This document shows positions 476-10,214 of a stretch of DNA of 64,000 nt, piece after piece. A program made the translations under genes and the position numbers. The notes below the pieces were generated by a model. It did not search any database. It saw nothing but the letters and a program-made list of their open reading frames with translations, and had not been told where the DNA came from. Source of the DNA: Spirochaetaceae bacterium. Lineage in GTDB: Bacteria > Spirochaetota > Spirochaetia > DSM-2461. The stretch's first letter is position 1, and each line of letters starts with the position of its first letter. Where the stretch lies: contig OZ245056.1 of NCBI GenBank assembly GCA_965224705.1, positions 224,001 through 288,000 of the forward strand, in the 5' to 3' direction.

Positions 476-664
476 TTAGAGCTTTTGGATCTCTTCTTCG
501 CTTAGGCCGGTGGCCTTGATGATGATGTCAAAAGAAACTCCGGCGGCTTTTAAGCGCCTGGCTGTTTGGGTTATGCCTGCTTTTTTGCCTTCTTTTATTC
601 CGTCATCCCAGGCCTTTTCCAGTTGAGGCCTCATCAGTTCTGTTACATCGGCAACAGGTACCAT
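476..664 (-). CDS. Putative internally initiated small C-terminal protein (RpnS-like antitoxin), 62 aa; equivalents at 1624-1836, 3097-3297, 6190-6378, 7301-7537, 8472-8672
   Basis: In-frame AAGGAG(GA) Shine-Dalgarno 6 nt before ATG (GKENNM/GKEDNM) in all six copies; product MVPVADVTELMRPQLEKAW...GLSEEEIQKL. Confidence 0.7.
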   Translation of the reverse strand: MVPVADVTELMRPQLEKAWDDGIKEGKKAGITQTARRLKAAGVSFDIIIKATGLSEEEIQKL

Positions 665-1229
665 ATTGTTCTCCTTGCCTTCGAAAATTGATAATCTCAT
701 TATAACGCCCTTAAGTAGCTTGTCAATAATCTGCTTGGGGAGACCGGACTCCTTGATTTCGATCTGGTCGGATAAGCGGTCGATATTCCGGCAGAATTCG
801 GATAGAAACACGCCGTCAGGCCCCGATAATTGGATGATTTCAATGTTGATGATGTGAATTTTGTACATTCCATAGTTGCCGATGAAGTGGCCGGGACATG
901 TCTCGATGAAATACTCTTTGTGTTCCCGGATGAATTTCCTCGGGGTTCTGGAGCAGATGAGTGTGATGGTTGTGTTGCTGTAGTTGGCTTTGGGGTTTTC
1001 TCTTAGGTAGAGGTTTGTGTATATGGAGAGGTCGTAAATGTCCTCTGTTCTTACGGCATCGCCGTATGATTTGTAGCTGACCAGGTTGAACGGAGCGAAG
1101 TAGTTGAAGATGTCGAATTCTACGCTGGCGGTGTTTTGTTTGATAAGGAGGACATCCAGCCTCTTGGGGCTTTTGAGCATTTCATGTTCCGTTTCAACCA
1201 GATATCCGCAAGAGCCAAAAAACTCCCTT
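476..1229 (-). pseudogene. Rpn-like PD-(D/E)XK protein copy 1, 5'-truncated (lacks first 23 codons); C-terminal small ORF 476-664 intact
   Basis: Homology to full copies ends at cctt 1226-1229, with an in-frame TAA immediately upstream on the minus strand. Confidence 0.8.
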
Positions 1230-1316
1230 TAACCCTCTGCGCTCTCTGCGTCCTCTGCGGTTAAAAAACCATGAGGGGGATATAAACCGCAGAGATCGCA
1301 GAGATACGCAGAGAAA
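1230..1316. repeat. Inverted repeat family A (ctctgcg units / cgcagag units); 7 copies at ~1230, 2745, 4215, 5768, 6944, 8103, 9565
   Basis: Left arm ctctgcgctctctgcgtcctctgcggtt, right arm aaccgcagagatcgcagagatacgcagag, ~22-nt loop. Confidence 0.9.
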
Positions 1317-1623
1317 TATGGGATAGAAAGATTGGTGAGTAATTACCTTCATTTGATGAAATAGAGTTACGGTATAAGGAATAATTGATGAAATCCTTTT
1401 GTGATTCTTGTGTGGTTTGTGGTTCATAAAAAAGGTTGGAAGCAGATTGAGAGGATTCTTTACCACGAAAGGCACGAAAATTTGGTGGTTTCCTTTTCAG
1501 GGTCCCGATAAGATGAGAATAATGGTTCCGGGGGATCGAAATGAGTTTTTTTGGGTGTTTCTCACGGAGGCACGGAGGGCACGGAGGTGGGGAACTCGAA
1601 ATGCAGGGGGAGATTTGTTTCTG

Positions 1624-2469
1624 TTAGAGCTTCTGGATCTTTTCTTCGCTCAGGCCGGTGGCCTTGATGATGATGTCAAGGGAGACTCCGGCGGCTTTTA
1701 AGCGCCTGGCTGTTTGGGTTTTTTCCTCATTTTTGCCTTCTTTTTTGCCCTCTTTTTTACCTTCTTTTATTCCGTCATCCCAGGCCTTCTCCAGTTGAGG
1801 CCTCATCAGTTCCGTTACATCGGCAACAGGTACCATATTGTCCTCCTTGCCCTCAAAGATAGATAGTCTCATTATAATGCCCTTAAGCAGTTTGTCAATA
1901 ATCTGTTTAGGGAAACCGGACTCCTTGATTTCGGTCTGGTCGGATAAGCGGTCAATATTCCGACAGAATTCGGATAGAAATATGCCGTCAGGTCCCGATA
2001 GCCGGATGGCTTCAATGTTGATAATGTGTATTTTGTACATCCCATAGTTGCCGATGAAGTGGCCGGGACATGTCTCGATGAAATACTCTTTGTGTTCCCG
2101 GATGAATTTCCTCGGGGTTCTGGAGCAGATGAGTGTGATGGTTGTGTTGCTGTAGTTAGCTCTGGGGTTTTCTCTCAGGTAGAGGTTTGTGTATATGGAG
2201 AGGTCGTAAATGTCCTGTGTTCTTACGGCATCGCCGTATGATTTGTAGCTGAGCAGATTGTACGGCGCAAAATAGTTGAAGATGTCGAATTCTACGCTGG
2301 CGGTGTTTTGTTTGATAAGGAGGACATCCAGCCTCTTGGGACTTTTAAGCATTTCATGTTCCGTTTCAACCAGATATCCGCAAGAGCCGAAAAACTCCCT
2401 TGCCTGTCTCTTGAAGAAGGTGTCCAGGGAGATTTGAGCTTTTGGTACTGATTTGGGCAGGGGCATCAT
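1624..2469 (-). CDS. Rpn-like PD-(D/E)XK nuclease-fold protein copy 2, full length (281 aa)
   Basis: LDTFFK, RLDVLLIK and NLLSYKS motifs; typical Rpn/TIGR01784-like tail EGKKEG...TARRLKAAGVSLDIIIKATGLSEE. Confidence 0.8.
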   Translation of the reverse strand: MMPLPKSVPKAQISLDTFFKRQAREFFGSCGYLVETEHEMLKSPKRLDVLLIKQNTASVEFDIFNYFAPYNLLSYKSYGDAVRTQDIYDLSIYTNLYLRENPRANYSNTTITLICSRTPRKFIREHKEYFIETCPGHFIGNYGMYKIHIINIEAIRLSGPDGIFLSEFCRNIDRLSDQTEIKESGFPKQIIDKLLKGIIMRLSIFEGKEDNMVPVADVTELMRPQLEKAWDDGIKEGKKEGKKEGKNEEKTQTARRLKAAGVSLDIIIKATGLSEEKIQKL

Positions 2470-2473
2470 ATTT

Positions 2474-2482
2474 AGAGTAGCA
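2474..2482 (-). promoter_or_regulatory. Putative extended -10 (TGcTACTCT) just before the start codon of full-length copies; also 3936-3944 and 9310-9318
   Basis: TGn-TACTCT lies 4-7 nt upstream of ATG and there is no Shine-Dalgarno, suggesting a leaderless mRNA. Confidence 0.5.
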
Positions 2483-3096
2483 TGATTTTTGAGAAGTGTT
2501 TAGGGCTGTGCATAGGGACACTGTGCAAGGAGTAATTTATGAAATCCTTTCGTGTGGTTCGTGGTTCACAAAAAGAGGCAGGAAGCAGATTGAAGGGACC
2601 TTCTGGTTCTGGGACTTTTGGGTTAGGAGGATTCTTTACCGCGAGAAACACGAAATTTTGGCGGTTTCCTTTTCAGGGGTACTGATTAAACCTCACCTTA
2701 AAAGTCAAACATGGCATGAATAAAGTTTGATGAGTAATTACCTTTAACCCTCTGCGCTCTCTGCGTCCTCTGCGGTTAAAAAATCATGAATGGGGATATA
2801 AACCGCAGAGATCGCAGAGATACGCAGAGAAATATAGTATAAAAAATTTGGTGAATAATTACCTTCATTTGATGAAATAGGGTTACTGTATAAGGAATAA
2901 TTGATGAAATCTGTTCGTGCCTTTTGTGTGGTTCGTGGTTTCTAAAAAGAGGCAGTAAGCAGATTGAGAGGATTCTTTACCACGAAAGGCACGAGAATTT
3001 GGTGGTTTCTTTGATTCCGGGGGATCGAAATGAGTTTTTTGGGGTGTTTCTCACGGAGGCACGGAGGTGAGGCTGTCGGATGCAGAGGATTTTTTG

Positions 3097-3930
3097 TTAG
3101 AGCTTTTGGATCTCTTCTTTGCTTAGGCCGGTGGCCTTGATGATGATATCAAGGGAAACTCCGGCGGCCTTGAAGCGCCTGGCTGTTTGCGCTATGCCTT
3201 CCTTTTTGCCTTCCTTTTTGCCTTCTTCTATGCCGTCATCCCAAGCTTTTTCCAGTTGAGGCCTCATCAGTTCCGTTACATCGGCAACAGGTACCATATT
3301 GTTCTCCTTGCCCTCGAAAATTGATAATCTCATTATAATGCCCTTAAGCAGTTTGTCAATAATCTGTTTGGGGAAACCGGACTCCTTGATTTCGGTCTGG
3401 TCGGATAAGCGGTCGATATTCCGGCAGAATTCGGATAGAAACACTCCGTCAGGTCCCGATAATCGGATAGTTTCAATGTTGATGATGTGAATTTTGTACA
3501 TCCCATAGTTGCCGATGAAGTGGCCAGGACATGTCTCGATGAAATACTCTTTGTGTTCCCGAATAAATTTCCTCGGGGTTCTGGAGCAGATGAGTGTGAT
3601 GGTTGTGTTGCCGTAGTTGGCTCTGGGGTTTTCTCTAAGGTACAGGTTGGTATAGATGGAGAGGTCGTAAATGTCCTGTGTTCTTACGGCATCGCCGTAT
3701 GATTTGTAGCTGACCAGATTGTATGGAGCGAAATAGTTGAAGATGTCGAATTCTACGCTGGCGGTGTTTTGTTTGGTAAGGAGGACATCCAGTCTCTTGG
3801 GGCTTTTGAGCATTTCATGTTCCGTTTCAACCAGGTATCCGCAAGAGCTAAAAAACTCCCTTGCCTGTCTCTTGAAGAAGGTGTCCAGGGAGATTTGGAC
3901 TTTTGGTACTGATTTGGGCAGGGGTATCAT
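3097..3930 (-). CDS. Rpn-like PD-(D/E)XK protein copy 3, full length (277 aa)
   Basis: Near-identical to copy 2. Confidence 0.8.
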   Translation of the reverse strand: MIPLPKSVPKVQISLDTFFKRQAREFFSSCGYLVETEHEMLKSPKRLDVLLTKQNTASVEFDIFNYFAPYNLVSYKSYGDAVRTQDIYDLSIYTNLYLRENPRANYGNTTITLICSRTPRKFIREHKEYFIETCPGHFIGNYGMYKIHIINIETIRLSGPDGVFLSEFCRNIDRLSDQTEIKESGFPKQIIDKLLKGIIMRLSIFEGKENNMVPVADVTELMRPQLEKAWDDGIEEGKKEGKKEGIAQTARRFKAAGVSLDIIIKATGLSKEEIQKL

Positions 3931-4752
3931 GTATTAGAGTAGCATGTTTTTTGGGAAGTGTTTAGGGCTGTGCAAGGGTCACTGTATAAGGAATAACTGA
4001 TGAAATCCTTTCGTGCTTTTCGTGTGGTTCGTGGTTTATAAAAAGATGCAGGAAGTAAATTGAAGGGAGCGTTCTGGTTCTGGGGCTTTTGGGTCAGGAG
4101 GATTCTTTACCGCGAGAAACACGAAAATTTGGCGGTTTCCTTTTCAGGGTTCCTGATTAAAACTCTCCTTAAAAGTCCAGAATGGCATGAATAAAGTTTG
4201 ATGAGTAATTACCTTTAACCCTCTGCGCTCTCTGCGTCCTCTGCGGTTAAAAAACCATGAATGAGGATATAAACCGCAGAGATACGCAGAGAAATATGGG
4301 ATAAAAATTGGTGAATAATTACCTTCATCTGATGAAATAGGGTTACTGTATAAGGAATAATTGATGAAATCTGTTCGTGCCTTTTGTGTGGTTCGTGGTT
4401 TATAAAAAGAGGCAGGAATCAGATTGACGGGACCGTTCTGGTTCTGGGACTTTTGGGTTAGGAAGATTTTTTTACCGCGAAAGACACGAAAATTTGGTGG
4501 TTTCCTTTTCAGGGTCCCGATAAGATGAGAATAATGGTTCCGGGGGATCGAAATGAGTTTTTTTGGTTTTTCCCACGGAGGGCACGAAGGTGGGGCTGTC
4601 GAATGCAGGGAGGCTGGGAAAGTGTTTTTGGAGGGATTTTTGAGGTTTTTCACGCCGGAAGGCACAGACATTCTTGATGAGATTTCCTTGTGGACACGGA
4701 AAGGAAATGCCTGTAGAATATAAAAATCCCTTAGAATCAGGAGATATTCCCC

Positions 4753-5022
4753 ATGCCTTCAATCTCAATGTTTTACGGACTTATCGTTTACATGTATTTC
4801 AAGGACAATAAACAGCACAAGCTTCCACATATCCATGTCAAATATCAAAATGACGAAGTCATCGTGCAAATACCGGAAGGAACAGTGCTTGAGGGGAAAA
4901 TCCCGACTTCCAGAATGAAACTGCTTCAGGCATGGATTGAATTACACAAAGAGGAATTGATCGCTGACTGGGCTCTTGCGGTTTCAGGTGAACAGCCATA
5001 CAAAATAGAACCATTGAGGTGA
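4753..5022 (+). CDS. DUF4160 family protein (DhiT-like toxin)
   Basis: MPSISMFYGLIVYMYFKDNKQHKLPHIH...AWIELHKEELIADW...IEPLR is typical DUF4160; AGGAG RBS. Confidence 0.9.
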   Translation: MPSISMFYGLIVYMYFKDNKQHKLPHIHVKYQNDEVIVQIPEGTVLEGKIPTSRMKLLQAWIELHKEELIADWALAVSGEQPYKIEPLR

Positions 5023-5029
5023 TACGGCG

Positions 5030-5272
5030 ATGAACCCCAGAGTAAAACATGTGGAAACAATTCCCGGCTATAAGTTGAAGCTGCACTTCAGCAATGGTGA
5101 AAAAGGAATTTATGACTGCTCCCCTCTGCTTGATTTTGGCGTGTTCAGGGAGCTTAAAGATGTCAGCTATTTCCAGTGGGCCAGTGCGAAAGACGGCACG
5201 GTTGTCTGGCCGCATGAGCAGGATATCTGTCCCGACACATTGTATCTGGATTCAGTGAAAATAGAGGTGTGA
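5030..5272 (+). CDS. DUF2442 family protein (DhiA-like antitoxin)
   Basis: YKLKLHFSNGE...GVFRELKD...GTVVWPHEQDICPDTLY; directly downstream of DUF4160. Confidence 0.9.
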   Translation: MNPRVKHVETIPGYKLKLHFSNGEKGIYDCSPLLDFGVFRELKDVSYFQWASAKDGTVVWPHEQDICPDTLYLDSVKIEV

Positions 5273-5278
5273 GTTGTT

Positions 5279-5320
5279 TTTTGCGCGGATATTGTCATTG
5301 AAAACAAGGTGATTTTTGAA
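5279..5320 (+). pseudogene. Fragment of a GxxExxY (PD-(D/E)XK-like) gene
   Basis: Translates FCADIVIENKVIFE, matching the family motif (F/Y)xADxxVExKVIxELK; cut by the MITE. Confidence 0.55.
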
Positions 5321-5488
5321 GGCGCCTCTAAAAAACACCCATTCCGTTTCTGACTTGATCTTTACCACTGCTGCTGCGTTGCTAAAATGCTCAAGCGCAG
5401 CTTAAGCTGCGCTTGAGCTTTTGTCGCCTTGTATCAGTGAAAAATCTCTGCGCCAGATTCCGAAAGCGGGTTTTTTTAGAGGCACCTT
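5319..5488. mobile_element. MITE (~170 bp) with terminal inverted repeats and a central perfect palindrome
   Basis: aaggcgcctctaaaaaac ... gtttttttagaggcacctt; 30-bp palindrome gctcaagcgcagcttaagctgcgcttgagc at 5389-5418. Confidence 0.8.
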
Positions 5489-6189
5489 TATAGCTACCGG
5501 AAAAACAAGTGAAATACGGCGAATGCGGCAGAGCTTGAGGTTGGCTGTGAAGCCAATCTATTCAGCAGGCTATGGACGAAATCAACAACGGGGGATACAG
5601 GCCGGGAAAATCGTTGGCTTTTATTGTGGAAAGACCGATAAAGCGGGAAATTTTCGCCGCCGATTTTTGTGGCCTCAGTGTGTATCATCTCATCATCGCT
5701 AAAATTTACAAGTTGGTTTGATTATTAGTTTCGACACGTTAAAAGTCAAACATGGAATAATTACCTTGAATCCTCTGCGCTCTCTGCGTCCTCTGCGGTT
5801 AAAAAACCATGAATGGGGATATAAACCGCAGAGATCGCGGAGATACGCAGAGAAATATGGGATAAAAAGATTGGTGAATAATTACTTTCATCTGATGAAA
5901 TAGGGTTACTGTATAAGGAGTAATTGATGAAATCCTTTCGTGCTTTTCGTGTGGTTCGCGGTTCATAAAAAGAGGTAGGAAGCAGATTGAGAGGATTCTT
6001 TACCACGAAAGGCACGAAAATTTGGTGGTTTTCTTTTCAGGGTTCCCGGTAAAATGAGAGTAATGGTTCTGGGAGATCGAAATGATTTTTTTGGTGTTTC
6101 TCACGGAGGCACGGAGGGCACGGAGGTGGGGAACTCAAAATACAGGGAGGCTTGCGGAGTTATGGGAGCTTGGGGGAGATTTGTTTCTG

Positions 6190-6943
6190 TTAGAGCTTCT
6201 GGATCTTTTCTTCGCTCAGGCCGGTGGCCTTAATGATGATGTCAAGGGAGACTCCGGCGGCTTTTAAGCGCCTGGCTGTTTGGGTTATGCCTGCTTTTTT
6301 GCCTTCTTTTATTCCGTCATCCCAGGCCTTTTCCAGTTGAGGCCTCATCAGTTCCGTTACATCGGCAACAGGTACCATATTGTCCTCCTTGCCCTCAAAG
6401 ATTGATAATCTCATTATAATGCCCTTAAGCAGTTTGTCAATAATCTGCTTTGGGAAACCGGACTCCTTGATTTCAGCCTGCTCGGATAAGCGGTCGATAT
6501 CCCGGCAGAATTCGGATAGAAACACGCCGTCAGGTCCCGATAATCGGATGGCTTCAATGTTGATGATGTGTATTTTGTACATCCCATAGTTGCCGATGAA
6601 ATGGCCGGGACATGTCTCGATGAAATACTCTTTGTGTTCCCGGATGAATTTCCGCGGGGTTCTGGAGCATATGAGTGTGATGGTTGTGTTGCTGTAGTTA
6701 GCTCTGGGGTTTTCTCTCAGGTAGAGGTTTGTGTATATGGAGAGGTCGTAAATGTCCTGTGTTCTTACGGCATCGCCGTATGATTTGTAGCTGACCAAAT
6801 TGTACGGAGTGAAGTAGTTGAAGATGTCGAATTCTACGCTGGCGGTGTTTTGTTTGATAAGGAGGACATCCAGTTTTTTCGGGTTTTTAAGCATTTCATG
6901 TTCCGTTTCAACCAGATATCCGCAGGAGCCGAAGAACTCCCTT
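6190..6943 (-). pseudogene. Rpn-like copy 4, 5'-truncated; small C-terminal ORF intact
   Basis: Same junction as copy 1 (cctt 6940-6943). Confidence 0.8.
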
Positions 6944-7300
6944 TAACCCTCTGCGCTCTCTGCGTCCTCTGCGGTTAAAAAACCATGAGGGGGATATAAA
7001 CCGCAGAGATCGCAGAGATACGCAGAGAAATATGGGGTAAAAGATTGGTGAATAATTACCTTCATCTGATGAAATAGGGTTACTGTATAAGGAATAATTG
7101 ATGAAATCCTTTCGTGCCTTTTGTGTGGTTCGTGGTTTCTAAAAAGAGGCAGTAAGCAGATTGAGAGGATTATTTACCACGAAAGACACGAAAATTTGGT
7201 GGTTTCCTTGATTCCGAGGGATCGAAATGAGTTTTTTTGGGTGTTTCTCACGGAGGCACGGAGGTAGGGAACTCGAAATGCAGGGGGGGATTTGTTTCTG

Positions 7301-8102
7301 TTAGAGCTTCTGGATCTTTTCTTCGCTCAGGCCGGTGGCCTTGATGATGATGTCAAGGGAGACTCCGGCGGCTTTTAAGCGCCTGGCTGTTTGGGTTATG
7401 GCTTTTCTTTCGCCTTCTTTCTTGCCCTCTTTTTTGCCTTCTTTCTTGCCCTCTTTCCTGCCCTCTTCTATTCCATCACCCCAGGCTTTTTCCAGTTGAG
7501 GCCTCATCAGTTCCGTTACATCGGCAACAGGTACCATATTGTCCTCCTTGCCCTCAAAGATTGATAATCTCATTATAATGCCCTTAAGCAGTTTGTCAAT
7601 AATCTGTTTGGGGAAACCGGACTCCTTGATTTCAGCCTGGCCGGATAAGCGGTCAATATTCCGACAGAATTCGGATAGAAATATGCCGTCAGGCCCCGAT
7701 AATTGGATGGTTTCAATGTTGATGATGTGAATTTTGTACATTCCATAGTCGCCGATGAAGTGCCCAGGGCATGTCTCGATGAAATACTCTTTGTGTTCCC
7801 GGATGAATTTCCGCGGGGTTCTGGAGCAGATGAGTGTGATGGTTGTGTTGCCGTAGTTGGCTCTGGAGTTTTCTCTCAGGTAGAGGTTTGTGTATATGGA
7901 GAGGTCGTAAATGTCCTGTGTTCTTACGGCATCGCCGTATGATTTGTAGCTGACCAGATTGTACGGCGCAAAATAGTTGAAGATGTCGAATTCTACGCTG
8001 GCGGTGTTTTGTTTGATAAGGAGGACATCCAGCCTCTTGGGACTTTTAAGCATTTCATGTTCCGTTTCAACCAGATATCCGCAAGAGCCGAAAAACTCCC
8101 TT
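7301..8102 (-). pseudogene. Rpn-like copy 5, 5'-truncated; small C-terminal ORF intact with the longest repeat tract
   Basis: Same junction (cctt 8099-8102). Confidence 0.8.
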
Positions 8103-8471
8103 TAACCCTCTGCGCTCTCTGCGTCCTCTGCGGTTAAAAAATCATGAATGGGGATATAAACCGCAGAGATCGCAGAGATACGCAGAGAAATATAGTATAA
8201 AAAATTTGGTGAATAATTACCTTCATTTGATGAAATAGGGTTACTGTATAAGGAATAATTGATGAAATCTGTTCGTGCCTTTTGTGTGGTTCGTGGTTTC
8301 TAAAAAGAGGCAGTAAGCAGATTGAGAGGATTATTTACCGCGAAAGGTGCGAAAATTTGGTGGTTTCCTTGATTCCGAGGGATCGAAATGAGTTTTTTTG
8401 GGGTGTTTCTCACGGAGGCACGGAGGGCACGGAGGTGGGGAACTCGAAATGCAGGGGGAGATTTGTTTCTG

Positions 8472-9305
8472 TTAGAGCTTCTGGATCTTTTCTTCGCTCA
8501 GGCCGGTGGCCTTGATGATGATGTCAAGGGAGACTCCGGCGGCTTTTAAGCGCCTGGCTGTTTGGGTTATGCCTTCTTTTTTGCCTTCTTTTTTGCCCTT
8601 TTTTATTCCGTCATCCCAGGCCTTCTCCAGTTGAGGCCTCATCAGTTCCGTTACATCGGCAACAGGTACCATATTGTTCTCCTTGCCCTCGAAAATTGAT
8701 AATCTCATTATAACGCCCTTAATCAGTTTGTCAATAATCTGCTTTGGGAAACCGGACTCCTTGATTTCGGTCTGGTCGGATAAGCGGTCGATATTCCGGC
8801 AGAATTCGGATAGAAACACGCCGTCAGGTCCCGATAATCGGATGGCTTCAATGTTGATGATGTGTATTTTGTACATCCCATAGTTGCCGATGAAGTGGCC
8901 GGGACATGTCTCGATGAAATACTCTTTGTGTTCCCGGATGAATTTCCGCGGGGTTCTGGAGCAGATGAGTGTGATGGTTGTGTTGCTGTAGTTAGCTCTG
9001 GGGTTTTCTCTCAGGTAGAGGTTTGTGTATATGGAGAGGTCGTAAATGTCCTGTGTTCTTACGGCATCGCCGTATGATTTGTAGCTGAGCAGATTGTACG
9101 GCGCAAAATAGTTGAAGATGTCGAATTCTACGCTGGCGGTGTTTTGTTTGATAAGGAGGACATCCAGCCTCTTGGGACTTTTAAGCATTTCATGTTCCGT
9201 TTCAACCAGGTATCCGCAAGAGCCGAAAAACTCCCTTGCCTGTCTCTTGAAGAAGGTATCCAGGGAGATTTGAGCTTTTGGTACTGATTTGGGCAGGGGC
9301 ATCAT
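8472..9305 (-). CDS. Rpn-like PD-(D/E)XK protein copy 6, full length (277 aa)
   Basis: Near-identical to copy 2. Confidence 0.8.
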   Translation of the reverse strand: MMPLPKSVPKAQISLDTFFKRQAREFFGSCGYLVETEHEMLKSPKRLDVLLIKQNTASVEFDIFNYFAPYNLLSYKSYGDAVRTQDIYDLSIYTNLYLRENPRANYSNTTITLICSRTPRKFIREHKEYFIETCPGHFIGNYGMYKIHIINIEAIRLSGPDGVFLSEFCRNIDRLSDQTEIKESGFPKQIIDKLIKGVIMRLSIFEGKENNMVPVADVTELMRPQLEKAWDDGIKKGKKEGKKEGITQTARRLKAAGVSLDIIIKATGLSEEKIQKL

Positions 9306-9382: not shown

Positions 9383-9477
9383 CTTTCGTGCTTTTCGTGT
9401 GGTTCGTGGTTCATAAAAAGAGGCAGGAAGCAGATTGAGAGGATTCTTTACCACGAAAGGCACGAAAGACACGAAAA
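9383..9477. repeat. Inverted repeat family B (ttcgtg units / cacgaa units); about 10 copies at ~1, 1395, 2548, 2910, 4007, 4370, 5934, 7109, 8269, 9383
   Basis: ctttcgtgcttttcgtgtggttcgtggtt ... taccacgaaaggcacgaaagacacgaaaa; short-loop and long-loop variants. Confidence 0.85.
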
Positions 9478-9739
9478 TTTGGTGATTTTCTTTCCAGGGG
9501 TACTGATTAAACCTCTCCTTAAAAGTCCAGAATGGAATAAAAAGTTTGGTGAATAATTACCTTGAATCCTCTGCGTCCTCTGCGGTTAAAAAACCATGAG
9601 GGGGATATAAACCGCAGAAATCGCAGAGATACGCAGAGAAATATGGGATAAAAAATTGGTGAATAATTACTTTCATATGATGAAATAAGGTTACTGTACT
9701 TCATTAAACAGTGTAAAAAGAGTCCTGAAGAGCCACTGC

Positions 9740-10065
9740 TTTGTTGAGGAAAGGAAACGGCGTAAACAGCTTGTGCTGCAGAAGCTCGCAGATTACCATC
9801 CCGTGCAGGCTCCAAACGATGTGTGAACGGTTGATTTTAAATGCTGGTGGTATGCTAAAGACCGTCCCGCTGTGAGCCATTGACAGTCAGAGATGAGCTG
9901 TTTTATTCTGGAAGCGGTGATTTTGCCTTCCCCCCGCATAGAAGATGTTTAAATGACCTTTGAGAGGGTTTTTAAGCTGTATGGACTGCCCGGAGTCATC
10001 AAAAGTGATAATGGAAGTCCCTTTGCCAACGCTCGTTCAGTCCGAGGCCTCACACGCCTTTCTTA
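9740..10065 (+). pseudogene. Degraded DDE integrase-core transposase (IS481-like)
   Basis: VQAPNDV*TVDFK.WW...CEPLTVRDE, then FERVFKLYGLPGVIKSDNGSPFA...GLTRLS, with stops and frameshifts. Confidence 0.75.
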
Positions 10066-10214
10066 CAGCTGTGGCGCAGGGAATTCAACACCGTCAGGCC
10101 TCATGAAAGGTCATGTCGGCAGTTGTGGCATGGACAAGCTAAAAAGGCATATTTGCCGTGTTTTACTCGGCTTAATCCATTCACTACTGCATATTTCTGA
10201 TTTAAGATAACAGC

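Follow-up and report, generated by a model that had tools for sequence, protein, structure and literature searches.

An internal start of RpnS type in an unclassified spirochaete nuclease family: a probable gene-within-gene toxin-antitoxin system

Does the gene-within-gene design of the Rpn nucleases extend beyond the genes annotated as such? In this design, published for RpnA-E and RpnP2 of E. coli and for Rpn of C. difficile (Zhong et al. 2023, PMC10400941), a nuclease gene (product RpnL) contains the gene for its own small inhibitor (RpnS). The question is raised by a tandem array at positions 476-9305 of a 64,000-nucleotide (nt) stretch of contig OZ245056.1 (assembly GCA_965224705.1, positions 224,001 to 288,000) from a Spirochaetaceae bacterium; "the window" denotes this whole stretch. 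The array comprises one nuclease gene present as six copies, all on the minus strand and 93-97% identical to each other in DNA over codons 41-211. An original prediction, made from the letters of the window, had taken every copy for a gene within a gene resembling RpnS. Our analysis suggests that the array is probably an RpnL/RpnS-type toxin-antitoxin system in an unclassified nuclease family, in which L denotes the long and S the small product.

Internal start codon and promoter

The long gene is whole in copies 2 (1624..2469, 281 amino acids), 3 (3097..3930, 277 amino acids) and 6 (8472..9305, 277 amino acids), and 5'-truncated in copies 1 (476..1229, codons 24 to the end), 4 (6190..6943) and 5 (7301..8102). 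The prediction thus holds in all six copies for the inner gene but in only three for the outer one. An in-frame ATG lies 6 nt past the Shine-Dalgarno (SD) motif AAGGAG in every copy, in the context GGC AAG GAG (A/G)AC AAT ATG and exactly where it had been placed: at 664 in copy 1 (SD 676-671), 1836 in copy 2 (SD 1848-1843), 3297 in copy 3 (SD 3309-3304), 6378 in copy 4 (SD 6390-6385), 7537 in copy 5 (SD 7549-7544) and 8672 in copy 6 (SD 8684-8679, the whole element spanning 8670..8684). The small open reading frames (ORFs) that follow encode 62, 70, 66, 62, 78 and 66 amino acids, respectively, lengths that differ in 4-residue steps; that of copy 6 occupies 8472..8672.

Pairing of the SD to the 3' end of the genome's own 16S amounts to -8.3 kcal/mol for the allele encoding Asn and -11.2 kcal/mol for that encoding Asp. 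Internal in-frame ATGs of at least equal strength make up 5.6% and 1.1%, respectively, of the 12,327 present in 1,581 long ORFs of the same genome. The Asn/Asp polymorphism had been proposed to change the length of the SD; the energy does differ, but the Asp allele pairs over AAGGAGG (7 nt) and leaves the eighth base unpaired. The further proposal that the polymorphism tunes the antitoxin level finds no backing in the array, where the alleles do not follow the intactness of L (Asn in two intact copies and one truncated, Asp in one intact and two truncated). In both leaders the SD is predicted to be covered by folding, so that any such effect could take either sign.

As the six copies are near-identical paralogues, they represent one observation, not six; the evidence of the window, stemming from one event, is only suggestive by itself, and it is the homologues that carry the case beyond chance. 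Across 19 genes of 13 genomes, the Met at the junction between nuclease domain and tail was associated with an SD of -7.3 or better in every gene; a single one of 80 other Mets had an SD of -7 or better. Glu codons within the SD window of these genes were GAG in 23 of 28 cases (158 of 469 elsewhere in the same genes) and Lys codons were AAG in 10 of 13 (170 of 539 elsewhere), in a test whose anchors were picked after the SD lists had been inspected and not blind. Synonymous SD tests combined over the 13 genomes gave 1.5e-5, with kinship ignored. We also scanned 61 homologous genes of 14 genomes blind for the strongest SD-linked ATG, GTG or TTG anywhere downstream of the catalytic motif. It stood 138-150 residues past the motif in 58 genes, with at least one such gene in each of the 14 genomes; four genomes contribute 44 of the 61 genes as paralogues.

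The SD persists where the encoded peptide differs (GKENN, NEEVDD, EGRILD, KEAGF), and both genes of one Leptospirales bin carry GTG (Val) as the start codon at the junction. An SD-compatible dipeptide was found 1-3 residues before the junction Met in 66 of 80 full-length representatives, compared with 8 of 240 control windows. The SD is located, in the structural model, in the coil behind the last nuclease helix (188-205), and the lengths of S step by 4 residues within each congeneric genome as well. Judged by these patterns, the internal start is under selection, and we are confident that it is a genuine start of S. Proteomics would be expected to recover (M)VPVADVTELMRPQLEK as the N-terminal peptide of S. 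Trypsin cleaves Arg-Pro poorly, so this peptide probably extends to ...ELMRPQLEK.

Directly upstream, and not part of the original prediction, a perfect sigma-70-type promoter, TTGACA-16-TATAAT, with 34 nt between its end and the internal ATG, matches the consensus at 12 of 12 positions in all six copies (726-699, 1898-1871, 3359-3332, 6440-6413, 7599-7572 and 8707..8734, the last within codons I-D-K-L-I-K-G-V-I-M). The 3-Mb genome, for which 0.54 perfect consensus sites would be expected per spacer length, contains 20, of which 14 lie in the nuclease family. In three congeners, whose genes are 52-68% identical to the window genes in nuclease-domain DNA, every listed gene of the family bears a promoter of 11 matches out of 12 in the same place; it reads TTGACA-16-TA(A/G)AAT though the codons change (I/L-D-K ... 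V/Y/H-K-M), and the chance of obtaining it from synonymous choice was 0.010-0.039 per genome. Across 12 copies, neither hexamer nor AAGGAG shows any variation, while 73 of 149 other third positions vary. The original prediction of an internal start is upheld. The perfect sites outside the nuclease family, genome-wide, likewise prefer the 16-nt spacer (four at 16, two at 17, none at 18).

The starts of L at 2469, 3930 and 9305 lack an SD (pairing -1.3 to +0.2) and lie about 4 nt past a TG-N-TACTCT element, which suggests leaderless and weak expression. Given the internal promoter and the missing SD at the start of L, far more S than L is predicted. In E. coli rpn genes, an internal transcription start yields a short and more abundant transcript (Zhong et al. 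2023, 10.1101/2023.05.02.539157). RNA contigs from related strains (mostly 85-99% alike) occur in four metatranscriptome runs of one study; their summed depth was high in the small ORF and low in the nuclease portion, the values for 8603-8680 being 175-212 and 102-148 in two runs and 0-73 in the other two, and those upstream 0-21. We did not count these values as evidence: such depth is no basis for ranking parts within a gene, other Rpn genes have the last ~130 nt in common with this one, and all runs belong to one study; assembled RNA contigs reveal neither a start nor a level.

The nuclease domain and its tail

L of copy 6 is made up of a domain of PD-(D/E)XK fold (residues ~12-205, with D16, E39, D48, S74, K76 and D89), a linker, a long helix with 4-residue repeats and a three-helix tail. 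The AlphaFold model (predicted local distance difference test score 89.5) gives an alpha/beta N-terminal domain, of which the best fold matches are AF1548 (Z 8.4), NucS (8.2) and McrC (7.6); most further matches are PD-(D/E)XK nucleases as well. All 45 alignment rows have D48 and K76. The clade of the window carries S74 at the position of the motif Glu (D..S-Y-K), and the other clade has Glu there. Where Ser stands at this position, the following helix usually bears an acid at K+13 (27 of 33 members, against 2 of 50 otherwise). A migrated acid of this kind, PD-XXK-E, is described for Cfr10I (PMC3424549), and the arrangement favours an active enzyme.

None of the 45 members matched PF04754 or PF12784 at E<=0.01. 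TIGR01784 was matched by 37 of 45, and the match in the window protein is limited to residues 221-277 (37 bits against a cut-off of 52.1). The N-terminal domain is therefore outside the Rpn profiles, and only the tail matches one. In hhalign, the nuclease domain reached a probability of 1.7% against the PF12784 set and 0.1% against the PF04754 set (two sequences), figures to be read beside a positive control, PF12784 against PF04754, of only 9%; the first profile-profile comparison with Rpn domains had used just five template sequences. One Atlas cluster, 16% of it PF04754, scored 0.93 with 132 shared features, which we treat as a lead only.

The tail bears out the predicted likeness to RpnS, since it matches the RpnA-S crystal structure 7TH0 both in profile (E 9e-7) and in fold (Z 6.3, root-mean-square deviation 1.8 A over 46 residues). 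The source genome also has 11 matches to PF12784 (PDDEXK_2), of which one is situated ~260 nt to the left of the window and another within a second array. The last 32 codons of the PF12784 genes share a mean 90% identity with the best nuclease-family tail of the same genome; the nuclease-family tails of congeners are 57-63% identical to it. In the table behind these figures, one broken nuclease-family copy is mislabelled PF12784, which affects other cells. Two pairs compared over the last ~32 codons gave 84-85% identity between the families. The two families interleave in a tree of 35 tails, and a single clade for the nuclease-family tails was rejected (approximately unbiased test, p-AU 0.02), in an alignment of 96 columns with two long branches. 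These comparisons indicate that the tail has been exchanged between the nuclease family and true PF12784 Rpn genes. Identity between the two begins within the 12-nt repeats, which are the likely crossover site. Zhong et al. 2023 (10.1101/2023.05.02.539157) reported that an rpn N-domain had become fused to an rpnS copy lying downstream; the text of that preprint describes no exchange between families.

One PF12784 subfamily has a strong internal SD and ATG of its own (-11.7 to -12.1). The PF12784 gene to the left of the window (L152:14870-15736) extends the array and bears an internal SD and ATG 92 codons from its end; the gap separating this gene from the window start contains an orphan tail fragment. 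Elsewhere in the source genome, two PF12784-type remnants (1402115-1402450 and 1274732-1275082) consist of the internal start and small ORF alone, i.e., S-only copies of the second family. A third Rpn-type subfamily (533709-534794 and 961115-962047) has the same tail, and no strong internal SD-ATG was seen among the Mets listed, which covered ATG only. PF04754-type Rpn genes of two congeners (G001 and G012; L141-L151 and L140-L150) have a GTG or ATG start at the junction, with SDs of -8.2 to -13.0, and long runs of 4-residue repeats.

Broken copies, surroundings and distribution

Copies 1, 4 and 5 have a common junction, at which a 4-nt microhomology fuses codon 24 to the edge of a palindromic spacer (copy 1: microhomology 1226-1229, arms 1243-1262 and 1285-1304; equivalent junctions at 6943 and 8102). 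The upstream region and the first 23 codons including D16 are removed, and promoter, SD and small ORF are intact, so that these copies are probably S-only cassettes. Met codon 41 was considered as a start for the truncated copies and rejected: its SD is just -3.5, and the product would miss D16 and E39. Across the source genome, promoter and SD are kept in all nine copies with a whole L. Seven broken copies span the junction; four have a complete S unit, one keeps the promoter with S cut after 14 codons, and two have lost sequence separating the -10 box from the SD. Damage to the S signals is confined to copies whose L is broken anyway, the pattern expected of a toxin-antitoxin system, albeit in small numbers. 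Broken copies with intact S ORFs were also found in one congener. Private changes of the truncated copies (synonymous/non-synonymous 4/4, 2/2 and 0/0) were too few to detect relaxed selection. The copies at 1268676 and 1958708 of the source genome carry different short deletions, each bringing the -10 box directly up to the SD.

Within the array, a DUF4160 and DUF2442 pair resembling the DhiT/DhiA toxin-antitoxin system occupies 4753..5272 on the plus strand, both genes scoring below the NCBIfam cut-off; a perfect hairpin with a T-run follows 3' of it at 5389-5418. Modular palindromic spacers lie between copies (242-413, 1243-1304, 2758-2820, 5781-5843, 6957-7018, 8116-8178, 9383-9477 and 9569-9628), and one spacer motif occurs 165 times in the genome, concentrated at nuclease arrays. 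An Rfam search returned four weak matches, none close to gathering scores, and left the spacers unmatched. At the right edge of the array, an 85-residue ORF (9953-10210) precedes genes for an APH-family kinase and sugar uptake. It had no Pfam match at 1e-3, and its motif is suggestive of an integrase-core remnant.

Of 61 related genomes, 4 contain the nuclease family; each of the four belongs to the genus of the window and is a near-closed assembly. A phylum-wide survey, with up to six candidates scored per genome, detected it in 10 of 401 genomes. A search of the whole library gave 556 representative proteins at E<=0.001 and 67 at 1e-10, some of them through the tail alone. Titled relatives are Spirochaetaceae, Leptonemataceae and Leptospirales bins, the close ones being Spirochaetaceae, as expected from the predicted spirochaete origin. 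Where relatives bear names these read "hypothetical protein", one coming from a Bacteroidota bin. The nearest Atlas clusters are without names, and their commonest taxa, on few records, are Bacillota or Cyanobacteriota. Two metagenome scans yielded no match and one weak locus, respectively. Three inspected neighbourhoods contained a DhiT/DhiA-like pair, PF12784 genes, an AAA-ATPase/PDDEXK_9 gene and transposases, and PADLOC matched one of six proteins, via its HRDC domain only.

Rival readings and known systems

If the RpnL/RpnS-type reading is correct, a whole copy would be a two-product gene. L (~277 amino acids), a PD-(D/E)XK nuclease domain joined to a C-terminal helix and three-helix oligomerisation tail, would be made at a low level from its SD-less start. 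S (62-78 amino acids, the tail alone) would arise from its own transcript, begun ~27-28 nt before the internal ATG by the TTGACA-16-TATAAT inside the coding sequence, with the ribosome binding AAGGAG(G). Excess S would bind L through the common tail and switch the nuclease off, as RpnS does with RpnL; the number of 4-residue repeats probably sets specificity, and the three 5'-truncated copies would serve as S-only cassettes. The elements, their conservation, the fold and the homology of the tail to RpnA-S are results of the sequence analysis. We hold it highly probable that S is transcribed and translated, and likely, by analogy, that L is an active and toxic nuclease that S binds and inhibits; for an anti-phage role the chances appear slightly worse than even.

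Several results weigh against this reading or parts of it. The per-gene synonymous SD tests are modest (p<0.05 in 6 of 19, range 0.011-0.65), the strongest site of the blind scan lay elsewhere in 3 of 61 genes, and outside the genus the promoter does not rise above background (7-9 of 12 at the site against 6-11 in background windows). The fold Z-scores of the L domain are middling, Foldseek gave no match for L at E<=0.001, and the pairing of Ser with the relocated acid is essentially one split between two clades and not many events. As to defence, no member of the family was found on viral contigs or, in a search with one distant member, on plasmids; no PADLOC model matches the nuclease protein, and the three neighbourhoods are not classic defence islands.

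One rival is that the SD and the ATG have arisen incidentally, from a linker rich in Glu, Lys and Gly and from a conserved Met, that no S is made, and that the copies are alike through recent duplication. Their 93-97% identity fits this, as does the proportion of internal ATGs, 5.6%, that attain the strength of the Asn allele; nevertheless, we consider it the least probable reading, because the SD stays while the peptide changes, synonymous codons are biased to GAG and AAG, GTG replaces the start codon in one lineage, and a conserved consensus promoter stands directly upstream. A catalytically dead L in this subclade is also very improbable. In that case the locus would be kept mainly as a source of S tails that neutralise the genome's canonical Rpn toxins. 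In its favour, Ser replaces the motif Glu, the start of L is gone in three of six window copies, and the tails are ~90% identical to those of the PF12784 genes. However, D48 and K76 are invariant, the Ser clade has its acid at K+13, and among 171 codons of the six copies 39 vary only synonymously against 21 that change the residue; moreover, the first helix of S is family-specific, and inhibition by RpnS is cognate-specific in E. coli (Zhong et al. 2023).

We regard as unlikely, to a lesser degree, that S is made but is no antitoxin, acting as a dominant-negative or structural partner, or as a small DNA-binding regulator that limits selfish duplication or recombination by L. The arrays would then have spread as genomic parasites and not for defence. 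Such elements would fit the high copy number per genome, the tandem arrays and their palindromic spacers, tails that recombine between families, the lack of a PADLOC match or clear defence island, and weak HTH_7 matches in 2 of 45 members. Zhong et al. 2023, however, detected neither terminal repeats nor target duplications with rpn genes and demonstrated direct inhibition by the homologous tail, and every whole copy of L here retains the S signals. A more speculative possibility, less likely than not, is that RpnS-type tails are antitoxin modules that can move between genes, and that at least one widespread, unannotated PD-(D/E)XK family outside Rpn has received one. The recipient family would have written an internal promoter and ribosome site into its last nuclease helix, recombination at the 12-nt repeats would pool the three-helix tails of different nuclease families in one genome, and truncated copies would be kept as antitoxin-only cassettes. 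If true, the unit would be a shared, fast-shuffling antitoxin network instead of isolated toxin-antitoxin pairs.

Should the RpnL/RpnS-type reading be right, intragenic antitoxins would reach beyond annotated Rpn genes to an unnamed family, and anyone cloning or annotating such "hypothetical" genes would unknowingly co-express the inhibitor. The perfect internal promoter would offer a clean handle, as synonymous changes could block S at transcription or translation separately. The natural paralogues, with products of 62-78 amino acids and swapped tails, would allow a test of whether specificity resides in the first helix, the repeat number or the tail, a point left partly open by Zhong et al. 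2023. Literature searches brought up only that study and a commentary on it (PMC10400984) as relevant. We found no publication on the nuclease family, judging largely by titles and abstract openings; Dataset S1 of Zhong et al. may list its genes under COG5464 via their tails, the assignment, made with eggNOG-mapper, by which their supplementary information defines Rpn.

How does the family compare with known systems? With Cfr10I-type PD-XXK-E endonucleases (PMC3424549), it shares a strand 3 without the motif acid and an acid on the next helix. This likeness is an analogy of the active site only (1cfr, Z 4.4), and unlike in Cfr10I-type systems no methyltransferase partner was seen in the array. 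The PF12784 genes of the same genome have nearly identical last ~32 codons, and a strong internal SD and ATG is likewise present in one of their subfamilies; unlike the window family, they show no detectable sequence match in the nuclease domain or the first helix of S, their S products have 88-100 amino acids, and they lack a consensus internal promoter (7-8 of 12). From RpnL/RpnS systems the window family differs in an N-terminal domain unmatched by PF04754, PF12784 and TIGR01784, in the motif D..S-Y-K with an acid at K+13, in S-only copies that arise from loss of the 5' end, whereas those of Rpn arise from tail duplication downstream, and in tails common to a second nuclease family of the same genome. 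The design is otherwise the same: an N-terminal PD-(D/E)XK fold with a helical tail, an internal SD and start at the domain junction, an internal promoter, a first helix of S with varying numbers of 4-residue repeats, tandem arrays and extra S-only copies. The window family thus appears to work like Rpn while its nuclease domain lies outside the Rpn profiles, and what it appears to add to the known systems is an unclassified nuclease family of the same design, with a promoter held in its code, a variant active site, S-only cassettes and tail exchange across families.

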